Below, in pieces: positions 11,293 through 22,170 of a DNA stretch of 23,951 nt. The position numbers and the translations under genes are program-made. How positions within the stretch are numbered: position 1 is the first letter of the stretch; each line of letters begins with the position of its first letter. The stretch spans positions 1-23,951 of the IMG/VR virus record IMGVR_UViG_3300023082_000001. One strand, given 5' to 3'. This DNA is from a virus. The notes under the pieces are model-generated. The model worked only from the letters and a program-made list of their open reading frames with translations. It was not told where the DNA came from and searched no databases.

Positions 11293-11322
11293 GTCAATCA
11301 CCTATGTGTTGTGTATGGCATG

Positions 11323-11351
11323 ATTTTATCTGAGGATAGTGCTGTGTGCAA
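11323..11351 (-). promoter_or_regulatory. sigma70-like leftward promoter
   Basis: TTGCAC-17-TAAAAT. Confidence 0.6.
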
Positions 11352-11419
11352 GGGGAATTTGAGATTATTTTTAGGAGGGCATCATAGATGCTGTTGGATA
11401 TTATTTGTGAAGAAAGGGG

Positions 11420-11447
11420 TTGACGTGGGGAGAAAGCGTGGTATTCT
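11420..11447 (+). promoter_or_regulatory. sigma70-like rightward promoter
   Basis: TTGACG-16-TATTCT with TG extension. Confidence 0.55.
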
Positions 11448-11618
11448 GTGTCTTATCTGTGGGAGAGCAGTAAGGTTTCTTTGGAGAAAGTACCGAGTAG
11501 CAAGGGGTACAAACCCATATAAACCGTGGGCTGTAGGCTAGTTTGTGTACTGGAATACATGTATCTAGTATCACCACTATCTATCTACTAATATTTACAA
11601 CCAATAGGAGGAGAGTAG

Positions 11619-12977
11619 TTGATTTATGAATTAAGTAAGATGAAAGAATCAGAAGTATATTCTACTAATCTAAGATGTGTAAGAAGCTATATTTATTATC
11701 ATGAATCTAAATACTACAAGAAGATAGTAGATCATATACTAGAGCATACAGAGGAAAGATGGGAAGAAGCAGTTAGATGGTGGATAAGTAATAGTGCTCG
11801 TGCCATTAAACATAAGGCTACTGGATTTGTATTTAGCTTAGATAAGAATACATATACCAAATCTGTTCAAGGTATTGGATACAGGAAAGTTAAATCTTTA
11901 GTTGATTTTCTTGAGCAAAAGGGTTATATTGATCTTTATAAAGGTTATGTGAAGTCTTGGAAAACAGTTAACGGTAAACCAAAACCTGATGTTGTTGTTC
12001 CCTCATGCCTGATATTTCGTAAGCGAACACTAGATATGTGGGAAGGAGTGGACGTTTCCTATAACCTATGGCGAGACCTTGAAGAAAGTGATCTTGCTAT
12101 CATTCGTAATCGGGAGACTAAAGAATTAATGTCTACTCGTGGTCACAAAGGTTTTAAAGATATCAAATCTGAGGTGAGGAACATGAATAACAGTTTGGAA
12201 GGTGCAGACATTACATTCGATGGTAAGCCAATTGCTGATGTTGCATATCGTCGTATCTTCAGTGGTGATTTGGATAAAGGTGGTAGACTGTACACGCTCG
12301 GTGGTGGTGTCCAACTTCTTCCACAACACATTAGGGCATCGTCCTTAAGGATTGATGGTGAAGCTGTAGTTGAGCTAGACTACTCAGCTATTCACCCCAG
12401 TATCTGCTACCAACAGATGTATAATAACGATGGCTTTAATATTTATGATGTAATGGGAACTGAGTTCTCCCCTTATGATGCTGACTTATCATTCGTTAAA
12501 GTGGATGAGAAGCTAAAAGATCAATGGGAAACATTGACGGGTAAGAAGCACAATCCTAGGCGTTCACTGGCAAAGCTTGGAATTCTTATTGGTATGAATT
12601 CCGACGATATGAACAGCGCAGCGTGGACACTTGGTAACAAGGTGAAGCTTGACAGAGAGAAAGAGGTGGAAGACCAAGAGTTTTATGCTTTAGTTGGTAA
12701 GACAGACTACGGTAAAGTGTTAGAAGCTGTGAGAAGCCATAACGATTTTATTAGAGATATGTTCTTTAATGATGGCGGCATTATGCTTCAGAATATTGAC
12801 AGCAAGATTATGATGAACATTGTTGGTGCAATGGGTGAGAAAGGTCATGCTGTTTTAGCCTATCACGACAGTGTTTTGGTTAAGGAGTCAGCAGAAGATG
12901 ATTTGAGAGAAGCTATGTTTACAGCATGGAAAACAGTCTTAAGTGATACAACATTTTGTAAGGTGGATAAGAAATGA
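11619..12977 (+). CDS. Minimal family-A DNA polymerase / T7-RNAP-like fold protein
   Basis: DKGGRLY (DxxGR), VVELDYSAIHP (motif A), RRSLAKLGILIGMN (motif B-like), LQNIDS, YHDSVLV (motif C); TTG start after AGGAGGAG. Confidence 0.7.
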   Translation: MIYELSKMKESEVYSTNLRCVRSYIYYHESKYYKKIVDHILEHTEERWEEAVRWWISNSARAIKHKATGFVFSLDKNTYTKSVQGIGYRKVKSLVDFLEQKGYIDLYKGYVKSWKTVNGKPKPDVVVPSCLIFRKRTLDMWEGVDVSYNLWRDLEESDLAIIRNRETKELMSTRGHKGFKDIKSEVRNMNNSLEGADITFDGKPIADVAYRRIFSGDLDKGGRLYTLGGGVQLLPQHIRASSLRIDGEAVVELDYSAIHPSICYQQMYNNDGFNIYDVMGTEFSPYDADLSFVKVDEKLKDQWETLTGKKHNPRRSLAKLGILIGMNSDDMNSAAWTLGNKVKLDREKEVEDQEFYALVGKTDYGKVLEAVRSHNDFIRDMFFNDGGIMLQNIDSKIMMNIVGAMGEKGHAVLAYHDSVLVKESAEDDLREAMFTAWKTVLSDTTFCKVDKK

Positions 12978-13965: not shown

Positions 13966-14217
13966 TCCGTTTGGTGACGGAAGCTTGACTGATGGAAAGA
14001 CATCATTAATTCTAGTTTCACCCAGCACAGAGCCAGAAGTAAATTCTACATAAATCTGTGTTGTCCTCAAACCAACAACATTTTCTCTCCTCCTATCTTC
14101 AGTGTTGTCGGTTTATTGTGTCTTCTAAGTTGCTATCTCCCGATTTAGAAGACATTTCTTTAAGTGCTGTTTATCGCTCAGCGAACACAATCTAATTGTA
14201 CCCTAACAGCCTTTAAA
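13966..14217 (+). ncRNA. Putative sRNA 1 (19-nt motif plus anti-SD loop hairpins)
   Basis: Stems 14023-31/14055-63, 14069-80/14103-14 (loop contains CTCTCCTCCTAT), 14119-32/14141-54 (loop CTATCTCC), 14166-71/14205-10. Confidence 0.5.
13986..14004 (+). repeat. 19-nt repeat TGACTGATGGAAAGACATC, copy 1
   Basis: Identical to 16315-16333. Confidence 0.9.
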
Positions 14218-16224: not shown

Positions 16225-16558
16225 TGAGTGGAAAGAATCAAGTAGTGATGCTTGGTATCGAACTGCCTAGTTCGTTTGCTCGACTCATTCTGGCGGATGA
16301 GGTTGTAAAATAAATGACTGATGGAAAGACATCGTTGTGGAGAAGCTGAGTAAATCTTGTACTCAGAGAGCTGTCAGGTCAGGTTAAGATTGTGGACGCT
16401 GGCACAACTATTCACGTAAGTACACTACGGACACAGTGATGTGTCTCCTCCTAACGTTATAGCCCAACGTGTGTACTAGGGCTAACTAATTAGATTTTAC
16501 ACAGGCTAGGCTGTCCTTTAAAAGCCGTCGCAGTCTGTACGGCTATATAAATCCTAGC
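16225..16558 (+). ncRNA. Putative structured ncRNA island 2
   Basis: Three-way junction with a GTGA tetraloop, 19-nt repeat, two loop-loop complementarities, anti-SD tract. Confidence 0.55.
16315..16333 (+). repeat. 19-nt repeat TGACTGATGGAAAGACATC, copy 2
   Basis: Identical to 13986-14004. Confidence 0.9.
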
Positions 16559-19757: not shown

Positions 19758-20720
19758 TTGAATTACGAAAAGATTTACAACGCACTTGTAGAAAAAGCTA
19801 AAGTTCGTGGGTTAGATAAAAGTAAGGACTCTGGCTATTATGAGATTCACCACATTCTTCCGAGATGTTTGGGAGGGTCTGACCATAAAAGTAACCTAGT
19901 GATGTTTACGGGAAGGGAACATTTTATTTCACATATGTTGTTGTGGAAGATGTACCCTAGAAATTCTGATCTTATGCACGCAGCATGGATGATGAGCCAT
20001 ACTCGTAAAGGTTATAAAGTTAATTCAACGACTTATGAAGCTCTCAGTATTGACCACTCTATTTGGCTTTCTGAAAGAATGGGAGGGATAAACAGCCCTC
20101 AATTCAAGGACTTGACAGGTCAGCGAAATGGTAAACTAGTTGTACTTGAACATGTAGGCTGGAAACTGCTTAATAATGGGTTCAGTACATCTACTTGGCT
20201 ATGCCAATGTGACTGTGGAAATTTCAGAACTCTCCAATCTAAAGAAGTTAGCCTTTCTTGTAAATCATCTTATAAGTCTTGCGGTTGTCTTACTGCTGAA
20301 GTCTCCTCATTGAGGGTTGGTGATAAGAATGCTTTCTACGGAAGGACTCATTCAGAAGAATCAAAGGCTAAGATGGCTGAAAAGAAATTTGGGCGTTCAC
20401 CTTCTAACAAAGGTGTAAAAGGAACTCCAGAGAAAAGTCAAAGAATTAAAGATAGTTTGTCAAAAATTAAAAGATTTTCTTGGTTGCACCCCTCTATTAC
20501 ATCAGACCCAGTAAAGACTGAGATGTGGAAGATGGCAATGTTTTATTACGACCTTTATCTTACTAATACAATTTTGACAAAAGCAAAGTTCACAACACTT
20601 TACAATAAACTCTATTGTGATGATATACCTTCATCGGCTCTCTATATTATGCACGATAAATTCTCTGGCGGTTGGGTTCCTTTAGAAGACAGCGAGTGGG
20701 TTAAATTTTCTAAAGGATGA
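19758..20720 (+). CDS. HNH homing endonuclease with NUMOD3-like motif
   Basis: EIHHILPRCLGGSD..NLV..GREHFISH; DLTGQRNGKLVV..CQCDCGN; NAFYGRTHSEESKAKM. Confidence 0.85.
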   Translation: MNYEKIYNALVEKAKVRGLDKSKDSGYYEIHHILPRCLGGSDHKSNLVMFTGREHFISHMLLWKMYPRNSDLMHAAWMMSHTRKGYKVNSTTYEALSIDHSIWLSERMGGINSPQFKDLTGQRNGKLVVLEHVGWKLLNNGFSTSTWLCQCDCGNFRTLQSKEVSLSCKSSYKSCGCLTAEVSSLRVGDKNAFYGRTHSEESKAKMAEKKFGRSPSNKGVKGTPEKSQRIKDSLSKIKRFSWLHPSITSDPVKTEMWKMAMFYYDLYLTNTILTKAKFTTLYNKLYCDDIPSSALYIMHDKFSGGWVPLEDSEWVKFSKG

Positions 20721-20724
20721 ATTA

Positions 20725-22170
20725 ATGAAAGATAAAAAATTACCGGGTCCAATTTCAGAACGTCAGCGAATGTATGTCACTGCTGATGTGGATGTGACCC
20801 TATATGGTGGTGCGGCTGGATCTGGAAAAAGTGAAATTGGCGTAATTGATTTTCTCAAGTATACCGACATCCCTAATTTTATCGGTGTTATGACTCGAAG
20901 AAACACCCCCCAGTTGACCGGGCCCGGTGGTTTGCTAACTAAGTGCAAAAGGATATTTGCTCAAGCTTACGATCCTGATGAATATACATGGCGTGCTAAA
21001 GATGGTAAGTTTGTCTTTCATAAATCTGGTGCGGAAATATATTTAAAACACTTTGAAAATGATCAGAGTGATGTGTCTTGGCAAGGTAGTGAAGCAAATC
21101 TTTTCTACGTAGATGAGGGAACACAGTTCACTCAGCACATGATTCAGTACATCATGTCTCGTATGCGTAATCCTTCGTGTCCTGAAGTAAAGCCTCATAT
21201 GAAAATTACCTGTAACCCTCACAATTCACATTTTTTGAGGAAATGGGTAGAGCCTTATTTGCAAGAGGACGGCACACCAGATAGGAATAAAGACGGAGTA
21301 GTTAGATACTTCTCATTCCAAGATGGTGATTTTGTGTGGGCTGATACAAAACAAGAGCTAGTTAGAGATTATGGCATTCCAGAAGAAGATGCTCTCTCTT
21401 TTACATTCATTAGTGCAACAGTTGATGATAACCCAATCGTTAAGCGCATAAATCCAAAATACGTCGCATGGCTTAAAGGTCTCAAGGGTGTAGAAAAAAG
21501 TAGACTTTTACTCGGAAATTGGTTTGTAAAAGAAAGTTCTGTTGGGTATTGGTCAGAGAAATGGGTAACTCCTGTAAGGCTACATGAACAACAAATAGTG
21601 TCATATTGTAGAGCTTGGGATATTGCAGGCTCTCTTCCCGCAGATGATACACCAAATCCTGACTGGACAGCTGGTGTGTTGATGGCAAAAACAAAAGGTG
21701 GTCGTTACATCATTTGTGATGTTGTCAGATTTAGAGCACGTTATGGTGAAGTTATTAGGCGTATTATTGAGACAGCTGGTGAAGATCCAGAAAACACACA
21801 GATTATACTGCCTCAAGAGCCCGGCCAAGCTGGTAAAGCAGCTGGTCAGATGATGATTAAAGATTTACTTGGTGAAGGATTTTACGCACGTATGCGACCT
21901 TCTAACAAAAGCAAAGTTATTAGGTTTTCTTCTTTCGCAGCAGCTTGCGAAGCGGGGCTTGTAGACTACGTGGAAGGCGCTTGGAACGAAGCTTACTTTG
22001 ACGAATTGGAGCGTTTTGATGGAACCCGCGCTGTAAAGGATGATCAAGTGGACGCCTCATCGGACAGCTTCATAACCTTAGCTCAAAAACTTCTAGTCCC
22101 AAACATCCTCTCCGGTCTTCAATCATTCGGCTTTGAACAAACAAGAAACCCCCTTAACAACATCCGATAA
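20725..22170 (+). CDS. terL: Terminase large subunit
   Basis: Walker A GGAAGSGKS, Walker B YVDEG, TCNP, nuclease RAWDIA and KDDQVDA. Confidence 0.95.
   Translation: MKDKKLPGPISERQRMYVTADVDVTLYGGAAGSGKSEIGVIDFLKYTDIPNFIGVMTRRNTPQLTGPGGLLTKCKRIFAQAYDPDEYTWRAKDGKFVFHKSGAEIYLKHFENDQSDVSWQGSEANLFYVDEGTQFTQHMIQYIMSRMRNPSCPEVKPHMKITCNPHNSHFLRKWVEPYLQEDGTPDRNKDGVVRYFSFQDGDFVWADTKQELVRDYGIPEEDALSFTFISATVDDNPIVKRINPKYVAWLKGLKGVEKSRLLLGNWFVKESSVGYWSEKWVTPVRLHEQQIVSYCRAWDIAGSLPADDTPNPDWTAGVLMAKTKGGRYIICDVVRFRARYGEVIRRIIETAGEDPENTQIILPQEPGQAGKAAGQMMIKDLLGEGFYARMRPSNKSKVIRFSSFAAACEAGLVDYVEGAWNEAYFDELERFDGTRAVKDDQVDASSDSFITLAQKLLVPNILSGLQSFGFEQTRNPLNNIR

Follow-up and report, generated by a model that had tools for sequence, protein, structure and literature searches.

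The gene at 11619-12977 and its conserved motifs

We analyzed a 23,951-nucleotide (nt) stretch of viral DNA (the window; positions 1 to 23,951 of IMG/VR record IMGVR_UViG_3300023082_000001) and focused on the gene at 11619-12977, whose product was designated P0001. The window is part of a complete phage genome of 89,412 bp with a 127-bp terminal overlap, and the phage is lytic. P0001 is almost certainly a member of divPolA2, that is, an accessory polymerase of about 450 amino acids (aa) in which a winged-helix-like domain is joined to a stripped-down palm-fingers core of the family-A/T7 type. The open reading frame (ORF) was exactly as the original prediction had claimed in length and position (Table 1). 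AGGAGG was located 6 nt 5' of the start codon, and the start column contained TTG in eight of the aligned relatives and ATG in one.

The motifs that had been read from the sequence, DxxGR(LY), DYS, RxxxAK and HDS, were all found in P0001. D219-KGG-R223-L-Y225 corresponds, as judged from its alignment, to the T-G-R-L-S motif of PolA, which carries a template-contacting Arg on a beta hairpin. R223 and Y225 were invariant in 50/50 homologues. In motif A, both E252 and D254 were conserved in 50/50; E252, two residues N-terminal of the motif-A Asp, was an extra invariant Glu specific to the family. Column 259, the position of the steric-gate Glu of PolA, contained His in 43 of the 50 homologues and Ala in 5, and Glu was never found there. 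The loss of the YG of motif B had also been claimed, and it was seen as R315-S-L-A-K319 followed by L-G-I-L-I-G-M-N327 (R315 in 49/50, K319 in 50/50, N327 in 43/50). By a count of the spacing (+8 from R315/K319), Asn327 would occupy the position of Klenow Y766 and T7 RNA polymerase (RNAP) Y639, the Tyr of YG. Y639 of T7 RNAP is the Tyr that selects ribonucleotides. In motif C, H416 and D417 were conserved in 50/50 homologues and S418 in 47/50. The pair of catalytic Asp, D254 and D417, was thus intact as predicted.

Nine residues were invariant across the 50 homologues, which reached down to 20% identity: R223, Y225, R239, E252, D254, Y286, K319, H416 and D417. After 44 bacterial proteins were added, G222, R223, R239, E252, L253, D254, K319 and D417 were still invariant. 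Because this held across the homologue sets, the motifs of P0001 reflected conservation and not chance. The invariance of the catalytic residues in very distant members meant that catalysis is under selection.

Pfam detected no exonuclease and no domain of any family at E up to 1, NCBIfam and PADLOC scans had no match to P0001, and a single-sequence search of the PDB returned nothing. A profile search of the PDB with profile A1 returned Taq only, at a sub-threshold E of 0.74-0.82, in exact register over GRLY/TGRLS and LDYSaIHp/LDYSQIEL (HMMER); the broader profile A7 returned nothing. No near-identical DNA was found among phage records by megablast. P0001 is a genuine relative of DNA polymerase I and T7 RNA polymerase, half their size and probably active.

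Structure of the core and the N-terminal domain

An AlphaFold2 model of P0001 was built from the homologue alignment, with pLDDT 93.6 and pTM 0.88. The AlphaFold and Foldseek check proposed with the original prediction gave a confident model, and a polymerase palm and fingers were matched. In the Foldseek search against the PDB, family-A DNA polymerases were found throughout the top matches listed (E about 3e-6, probability 1.0). VIA, an aligner independent of Foldseek, matched the model to apicoplast Pol (Z 13.4), Aquifex Pol I (Z 13.0), yeast mitochondrial RNAP (Z 12.4), Pol nu (Z 11.3), T7 DNA polymerase (Z 11.2), Klenow (Z 11.2), T7 RNAP (Z 11.0), N4 mini-vRNAP (Z 8.0) and N4 RNAPII (Z 6.6). 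For about half of the best-scoring polymerases (ranks 2, 3, 8, 9, 11, 13 and 15), the alignment began near residue 154; for the others it began near residue 24-65. Since both polymerase classes were matched, the core was assigned as a PolA/T7 palm and fingers. R223 was located on the hairpin 209-227 of the model. Neither an exonuclease nor a canonical thumb was seen in the core of the model, which agreed with the claimed lack of an exonuclease. The predicted closeness of D254 and D417 follows solely from the motif and fold matches.

In the VIA search with the model, DNA polymerases and RNA polymerases tied and were not separable. This bore out the prediction of a minimal polymerase fold between PolA and the T7-type RNAPs, and the structure searches of Yutin et al. 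gave the same tie (PMC11348598). P0001 could thus be a minimal single-subunit RNAP for a subset of phage genes, a reading that Yutin et al. also raised and that we consider unlikely. The Z scores of the yeast mitochondrial and T7 RNAPs were comparable to those of DNA polymerases, motif C is HDS as in T7 RNAP, and His or Ala always takes the place of the steric-gate Glu. However, Asn would stand where T7 RNAP has its ribonucleotide-selecting Tyr, and there was no Pfam match to RNA_pol or RPOL_N.

The original prediction had noted a segment like a winged helix-turn-helix in the N-terminal third (IGYRKVKSLVDFLEQKGYIDLYKG, residues 86-109), and this segment fell within a domain that resembles a winged helix in the VIA matches. 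When residues 1-158 were modeled separately, the domain showed a recognition-type helix at 88-100 and, after it, a beta wing of four strands at 104-133. Winged-helix proteins made up most of the 50 VIA matches listed, with Z of 6.2 for Nse3, 5.2 for MgrA/MarR, 5.0 for CAP, 4.9 for ADAR1 Z-beta, 4.9 for CodY and 4.3-4.7 for ORC/Cdc6; small ribosomal-subunit chains were also among them. CodY and MepR were the best Foldseek matches (E 0.06-0.07). These modest Z scores support a winged-helix assignment at the level of fold, not of homology. The matches go slightly beyond the 'no detectable similarity' published for the N-terminal domain of divPolA2.

Membership of the divPolA2 family

The family divPolA2 was named by Yutin, Tolstoy, Mutz, Wolf, Krupovic and Koonin (2024, Virol J 21:200) for a diverged form of PolA encoded by barbaviruses and by other phages (PMC11348598). 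The original prediction did not mention this family. It was first seen in Rheinheimera barbaviruses, and its reference is AUR84708.1 of Vibrio phage 1.063.O (PMC11348598). Profile A1 matched MG592441.1 at 25481-26701(-), the coding sequence of AUR84708.1, with E 1.1e-42, and it matched the cholera phage ICP1 with E 1.7e-58. PHROG 4756, of unknown function, matched P0001 with E 2e-81. A tblastn search with P0001 detected 241 phage records, 115 of which were Rheinheimera barbaviruses (E of about 1e-11, with 85% of the query covered). At E up to 1e-3 the family matched 11,505 cluster representatives, and at 1e-30 it still matched 5,475. An exact-sequence look-up of the Humidesulfovibrio protein found nothing.

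In the literature, the name divPolA2 was used only by Yutin et al. and in the preprint of that paper. The family is already described computationally since 2024, and our finding from the sequence repeats that description. Two roles were suggested there, DNA synthesis in repair and RNA synthesis as an RNA polymerase (PMC11348598).

Table 1. Coordinates of the features discussed, in the window unless another record is named.
Feature	Position	Strand	Basis or remark
Sigma-70-type promoter TTGACG-N16-TATTCT	11420..11447	+	regex scan; ~170 nt 5' of start codon
Leader block 1 GAGAAAGTACCGAGTAG	11484..11500	+	near-invariant in 9 aligned relatives despite diverged flanks
Hairpin-like leader element ACAAACCC-ATATAAACCGT-GGGCTGTAG	11509..11536	+	conserved in relatives
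Leader block 3 GGAATACATGTATCTA	11552..11567	+	relatives' alignment; followed by C/U-rich tract and ribosome-binding site
Ribosome-binding site region ATAGGAGGAGAG	11604..11615	+	exact 12-nt reverse complement at 14085-14096
divPolA2 copy 1 (P0001)	11619..12977	+	452 aa, TTG start; ORF and translation
Winged-helix-like domain, ~residues 29-150	11703..12068	+	separate model of residues 1-158, pLDDT 90.6
Polymerase core, ~residues 154-452 (R223 beta-hairpin, palm, fingers)	12078..12974	+	VIA and Foldseek matches
Beta-hairpin motif D219-K-G-G-R223-L-Y225	12273..12293	+	HMMER alignment with Taq TGRLSS
Motif A E252-L-D254-Y-S-A-I-H259	12372..12395	+	aligned to Taq LDYSQIEL
Motif B R315-xxx-K319 ... 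L323 ... N327	12561..12599	+	residue conservation
Motif C H416-D417-S418	12864..12872	+	in model beta-hairpin 413-422; D417 is the second catalytic Asp
divPolA2 copy 2	genome 70390-71763 (L003:1486-2859)	+	457 aa, 32-34% identical to P0001
ICP1_2006_E homologue ORF100	record 58,951-60,618 (L116:6952-8619)		annotated 'hypothetical protein'

Second copy and replisome in the phage genome

The genome contained a second divPolA2 gene, which keeps all the catalytic residues. Each copy was the first or an early gene of a rightward unit, just past a strand switch (at about 11.3 kb for copy 1 and 68.9 kb for copy 2). Copy 1 headed a block that runs into structural genes, and its placement was kept in relatives whose proteins were 65, 50 and 35% identical. 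Near either phage copy, no helicase, integrase or resolvase was found.

Elsewhere the genome encoded a 725-aa PolA (phrog_17, E 2e-92), a gp4-type primase-helicase, a gp2.5-type single-stranded DNA-binding protein and an exonuclease, together with a ribonucleotide reductase and a thymidylate synthase. Because a full T7-type replisome is encoded as well, P0001 is not the replicase. An extra polymerase gene of this kind could serve as an accessory DNA polymerase of low processivity, primer-dependent and using deoxynucleotides, in repair, recombination-dependent synthesis or gap filling. DNA polymerases were the top structural matches, and repair was among the options listed by Yutin et al. The residues with which PolA selects deoxynucleotides (the steric-gate Glu and the Phe/Tyr of motif B) are replaced in P0001, however, no repair genes were linked, and repair would need neither a winged-helix domain of sequence-specific type nor a conserved place at the head of an early unit. 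We regard this role as improbable.

Other features of the genome were also recorded. A gene-free, repeat-rich region of 650 bp was located at genome position about 85,200-85,920 (L007:5200-5920), between converging units. Its left half was rich in C and its right half in G, and it contained a perfect palindrome of 10 bp as well as repeats of TAGTGT. In the window at 19758-22170, a homing endonuclease gene (phrog_655, NUMOD3) ended 4 nt before terL, and the match of the terL product to phrog_979, a terminase profile, began only at position 145 of that profile. In one relative (L017), a T5orf172/DUF723 endonuclease was located directly upstream of terL. The site upstream of terL may be a hotspot for endonuclease insertion.

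Promoters and leaders of the two copies

A sigma-70-type promoter preceded copy 1, and its GGGGTTGAC and -10 region were conserved in 8 relatives. The same GGGGTTGACAGG also headed the other rightward unit, at genome position 69051. Sigma-70-like promoters preceded both copies, the early and replication genes and some late genes. No recurrent phage-type promoter was found in the genome by exact k-mer counts and inspection of intergenic regions.

These results bore on the reading of P0001 as an RNAP. Both copies head transcription units behind sigma-70-type promoters or leaders, so that the two could serve two temporal classes, with early expression from a host-type promoter as for T7 gene 1. 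However, no promoter-like motif recurred, the only shared element lay upstream of the polymerase genes themselves, and the replication genes and several late genes had sigma-70-like promoters of their own.

The 170-nt leader between promoter and ribosome-binding site (RBS) contained three blocks that were better conserved than their surroundings. Block 1 was unique in the 89-kb genome. The pattern CCCnTATAnAnC(n1-3)GGG, which belongs to the hairpin-like element, occurred just twice in the whole genome on both strands, at 11514-11530 and at 70294-70309. The second site was upstream of copy 2, where the shared hairpin element spans 70294-70312. The pattern was derived after the fact, and a rough chance estimate for the resemblance of the two upstream regions was about 0.01. 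The relatives gave independent support: copy-1 orthologues with 50% and 35% protein identity had recognisable versions of the element in their upstream regions. Upstream of the copy-2 orthologues, the element formed stems of 9-11 bp whose sequences differed yet remained paired (covarying), with z of -2.6 to -4.6 in most. The copy-1 hairpin folded no better than shuffled sequences, RNAalifold gave no consensus structure for the whole leader (-2 kcal/mol), and an Rfam scan for a leader RNA detected tRNA only. The conserved upstream element could be the enzyme's own target or a translational operator. A leader ORF at 11311-11541 was considered as a gene and rejected, as an indel in relatives breaks its frame.

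The RBS region had an exact reverse complement, CTCTCCTCCTAT, on the plus strand at 14085-14096, in a non-coding island downstream of tRNA-Asn. A search with the RBS/anti-RBS pattern gave 2 matches against 0.09 expected, and this site is a candidate trans-acting anti-RBS RNA. Two non-coding islands, at 13985-14003 and 16314-16333, also shared a near-identical 19-nt TGACTGATGGAAAGACATC. A third occurrence, ATGGAAAGACAT, was found at genome position 73647, and these could form a possible small RNA family.

Relatives in bacteria and in ICP1

Bacterial relatives were scanned with one genome per species, giving 80 loci; neighbouring ORFs were clustered and the representatives were scanned. A tyrosine integrase was found in 41 of the 80 loci and a resolvase in 16, and one or both were present within 6 kb, mostly at <=3 kb, in 43/80. 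In addition, a metagenomic relative adjoined serine recombinases. A dedicated transcriptase would be unexpected in such small integrase/resolvase elements. The neighbourhood of a 440-aa member (L032:1143-2465; hhalign E 7e-63; Ala at the steric-gate position) pointed the same way. A complete 888-aa T7-type RNAP (RPOL_N and RNA_pol; L032:2480-5146, also L033; short contigs of an NCBI assembly) was located 15 nt downstream of it. A member that adjoins a complete T7-type RNAP speaks against the family as the general transcriptase, and it also counts against P0001 as an RNAP.

Some relatives were larger or stood in other surroundings. P0258 (L009:8001-10814, 937 aa) combined a Drt4 defence reverse transcriptase (PADLOC E 1e-169, residues 11-509) with a C-terminal divPolA2-type core at 729-937, which had the motifs GGRLY, ELDYS..H and HDS. 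Its gene lay in a defence island and adjoined a PDC-S41 Schlafen-type helicase (a PADLOC candidate), HsdR and an OLD-like ATPase. Such fusions, in proteins of 929-950 aa with a Pfam reverse-transcriptase domain, numbered five. Another relative adjoined the conflict-system domains CTD9 and MC5. P0259 of Aureimonas glaciei (L008:8001-10790, 929 aa) had its winged-helix and polymerase parts in the first ~400 residues and a C-terminal extension of ~500 residues with no Pfam, NCBIfam or PADLOC match. The neighbourhood of P0259 was prophage- or plasmid-like, with KfrA_N, helix-turn-helix proteins and DNA_pol_B_exo2.

The Drt4 fusion bears on two alternatives. DNA synthesis is the chemistry expected there, which speaks for an accessory DNA polymerase. 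Conversely, P0001 might make a non-genomic product, such as a counter-defence decoy or a signalling polymer, or act mainly as a DNA- or RNA-binding regulator in which the polymerase fold is secondary. The fusion in a defence island beside a candidate helicase, the relative next to CTD9 and MC5, the variable neighbourhood and copy number, and the tight dosage control suggested by the leader hairpin and the anti-RBS would agree with such a role. We consider it very improbable, as the catalytic residues were all invariant in very distant members and the phage protein had no PADLOC match.

ICP1_2006_E encodes a homologue, ORF100 (Table 1). Barth et al. saw the early bidirectional origin of ICP1 as a maximum of sequencing coverage 'near the 60 kb position' (PMC7145576), and ORF100 coincided with this origin peak to within a few kb. 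According to a review of ICP1, this phage has a T7-like replisome and lacks a predicted RNA polymerase. No relevant literature was found on ICP1 gp100. In both ICP1 and Vibrio phage 1.063.O, an acyl-carrier-like gene was located a few genes upstream of the homologue.

Proposed function

With the fold, the conserved catalytic residues, the family membership, the paralogy and the genomic contexts established, we propose that P0001 is a site-directed initiating primase-polymerase, with a probability of roughly 0.4. The evidence leans to a start of DNA replication over general transcription. The proposal is based on the mobile-element contexts of the relatives, the precedent of CcPol, the domain of DNA-binding type, the coincidence in ICP1 and the arguments against general transcription. 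The functions offered in the original prediction, an origin-binding primase or initiator and a specialised RNA polymerase, are still the leading pair of readings.

In this mechanism, the winged-helix domain would place the enzyme on a specific nucleic-acid site. The core would then begin de novo synthesis of a short chain along the template by means of R223, the carboxylates of D254 and D417 (perhaps also E252) and R315/K319, and the chain would be handed to the phage PolA and the gp4 helicase-primase. The role would be a start of replication, as for T7 RNA polymerase at the T7 primary origin, and not the copying of the genome or transcription. T7 RNAP and mitochondrial RNAP prime DNA replication too. 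We infer that the enzyme initiates de novo, is specific for a site and passes its product to the replisome, and we likewise infer its choice of sugar. Because His replaces the steric-gate Glu of PolA, the primer may well be RNA. If so, the primase and RNA polymerase readings would differ mainly by product length and purpose. The conserved element, which occurs in the genome only upstream of the two divPolA2 genes, is a candidate cognate site.

A further proposal ties the family to this element. The divPolA2 proteins would be hairpin-directed initiators: the winged helix of each copy would recognise its own hairpin element (CCC-TATAnAnC-GGGCT-GTAG type, ~100 nt 5' of the gene), and an RNA chain begun at this site would prime phage DNA replication. 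We hold this to be a long shot. If it were true, the enzyme still missing for origin firing in ICP1-like and related phages would have been identified, and a core of ~300 residues would be enough for de novo, site-specific nucleic-acid synthesis.

Several points weigh against the proposed primase-polymerase. The phage already has a gp4-type primase, and a second primase therefore needs a special role. No helicase was fused or adjacent to P0001, unlike in the TV-Pols. The upstream element may simply be a translational operator. The match of ORF100 to the origin peak is good to a few kb only, because the coverage was in 1-kb bins and came from a CRISPR-deleted derivative. The GC skew flipped at all four strand switches, so that it tracks transcription and gives no origin location; as an origin marker it was rejected. 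The repeat-rich region at 85.2-85.9 kb, far from both copies, is a candidate for an alternative origin or a packaging site. The lack of a steric-gate Glu, the HDS motif and the Z scores with the mitochondrial and T7 RNAPs fit a true RNA polymerase equally. Finally, our literature search found no activity measurement for any member of the divPolA2 family.

The question is of moderate interest, as the activity is testable in ICP1, a model cholera phage whose transcription control and origin firing remain unexplained. The family is very large and has no curated Pfam or NCBIfam model. In the PolA/T7 lineage, its palm-fingers core is one of the smallest with every catalytic residue retained. Knowing whether its product is RNA or DNA and whether it initiates by itself would test the 2008 idea of a primase-polymerase ancestor of Pol I and T7 RNA polymerase, and it would perhaps yield a very compact enzyme for biotechnology.

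Comparison with known systems

P0001 was compared with five groups of enzymes. Against family A proper (DNA_pol_A, PF00476), it lacked a Pfam match and had His259 for Glu and Asn327 for Tyr, while the fold as such was common to both. Against the T7-type single-subunit RNAPs (RNA_pol PF00940, RPOL_N PF14700), neither domain was found and only the core fold was common (Z 11.0-12.4). These RNAPs share with P0001 the palm-fingers fold, the HDS of motif C and the absence of a steric-gate Glu. However, they are about twice its size, their motif A is DGSCSG where P0001 has LDYSxIH, they carry a ribose-selecting Tyr in place of Asn, and their N-terminal domain is unrelated to that of P0001.

The TV-Pol family was described by Iyer, Abhiman and Aravind (2008, Biol Direct 3:39) and was predicted to prime and to extend (PMC2579912). 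Like P0001, TV-Pols have a minimal family-A-like core of 400-600 aa without a nuclease, an Arg on the beta hairpin, two catalytic Asp and RxxxK in the fingers. The primase-polymerase prediction drew on an integrase/resolvase gene context (PMC2579912). A subset of TV-Pols occurs with gamma-delta-type resolvases and lambda-type integrases, and the bacterial relatives of P0001 are alike in this respect. Part of the argument of Iyer et al. was also a D5-like helicase fused to or next to the polymerase (PMC2579912), whereas none was fused or adjacent to P0001. The two-helix coiled-coil thumb of TV-Pols was not recognised in the P0001 model, which was read without superposition, and TV-PolN is all-helical, unlike the alpha/beta winged-helix-like N-terminal domain of P0001. 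Microcystis phage Ma-LMM01 was named as a TV-Pol carrier (PMC2579912); profiles A1 and A7 had no match in Ma-LMM01 (AB231700.1) at E up to 10, an empty answer that is uninformative. One bacterial relative came from 'alpha proteobacterium HTCC2255', and the species list of Iyer et al. has 'alpha proteobacterium', which is suggestive only. TV-Pol membership is thus left unverified, because Ma-LMM01 was unmatched, the helicase is unlinked and the N-terminal domain is unlike TV-PolN, although the catalytic synapomorphies and the bacterial context fit.

In SCCmec, a mobile element, CcPol forms part of the CcPol-MP primase (Bebel et al. 2020, eLife; PMC7581432). With its partner MP, this truncated PolA was proven biochemically to be a primase (Rice and co-workers, 2022; 10.1101/2022.12.02.518924). 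As a PolA it is genuine though truncated, and it lies near the CHEAP subfamily (PMC10201439); Iyer et al. put it in TV-Pol as well (PMC2579912). CcPol is the only biochemical precedent for a primase of the PolA fold, and it is an analogue of P0001, not a relative. Both are exonuclease-poor enzymes of family-A type, and CcPol, when aided in template binding, can begin DNA chains in the absence of a primer. However, CcPol is a genuine PolA, whereas P0001 had no Pfam DNA_pol_A match, and CcPol depends on a helicase and on an OB-fold partner encoded downstream, whereas no helicase was found near P0001. The small ORFs that overlap or abut the divPolA2 stop codon in this phage and its relatives had no mutual similarity and no PHROG match. 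Since they were unrelated to one another, there was no sign of a conserved MP-like partner. In P0001, the fused winged-helix domain may instead provide the DNA binding.

P0001 was like divPolA2 as described by Yutin et al.: the palm is intact, the exonuclease is absent, there is no canonical thumb (in their description, the thumb is not homologous), and the N-terminal domain is globular (PMC11348598). In both cases the gene stands beside a regular DNA polymerase, in one to three copies per genome, and copy number and neighbourhood vary across the family (PMC11348598). The regular polymerase of the barbaviruses is PolB, whereas the present phage has a T7-type PolA with gp4 and gp2.5. New with respect to that description were the His at the steric-gate column, the Asn of motif B, the invariant E252, the absence of a recurrent phage-type promoter, the winged-helix matches, the integrase/resolvase contexts in bacteria, the upstream element and the coincidence with the ICP1 origin.

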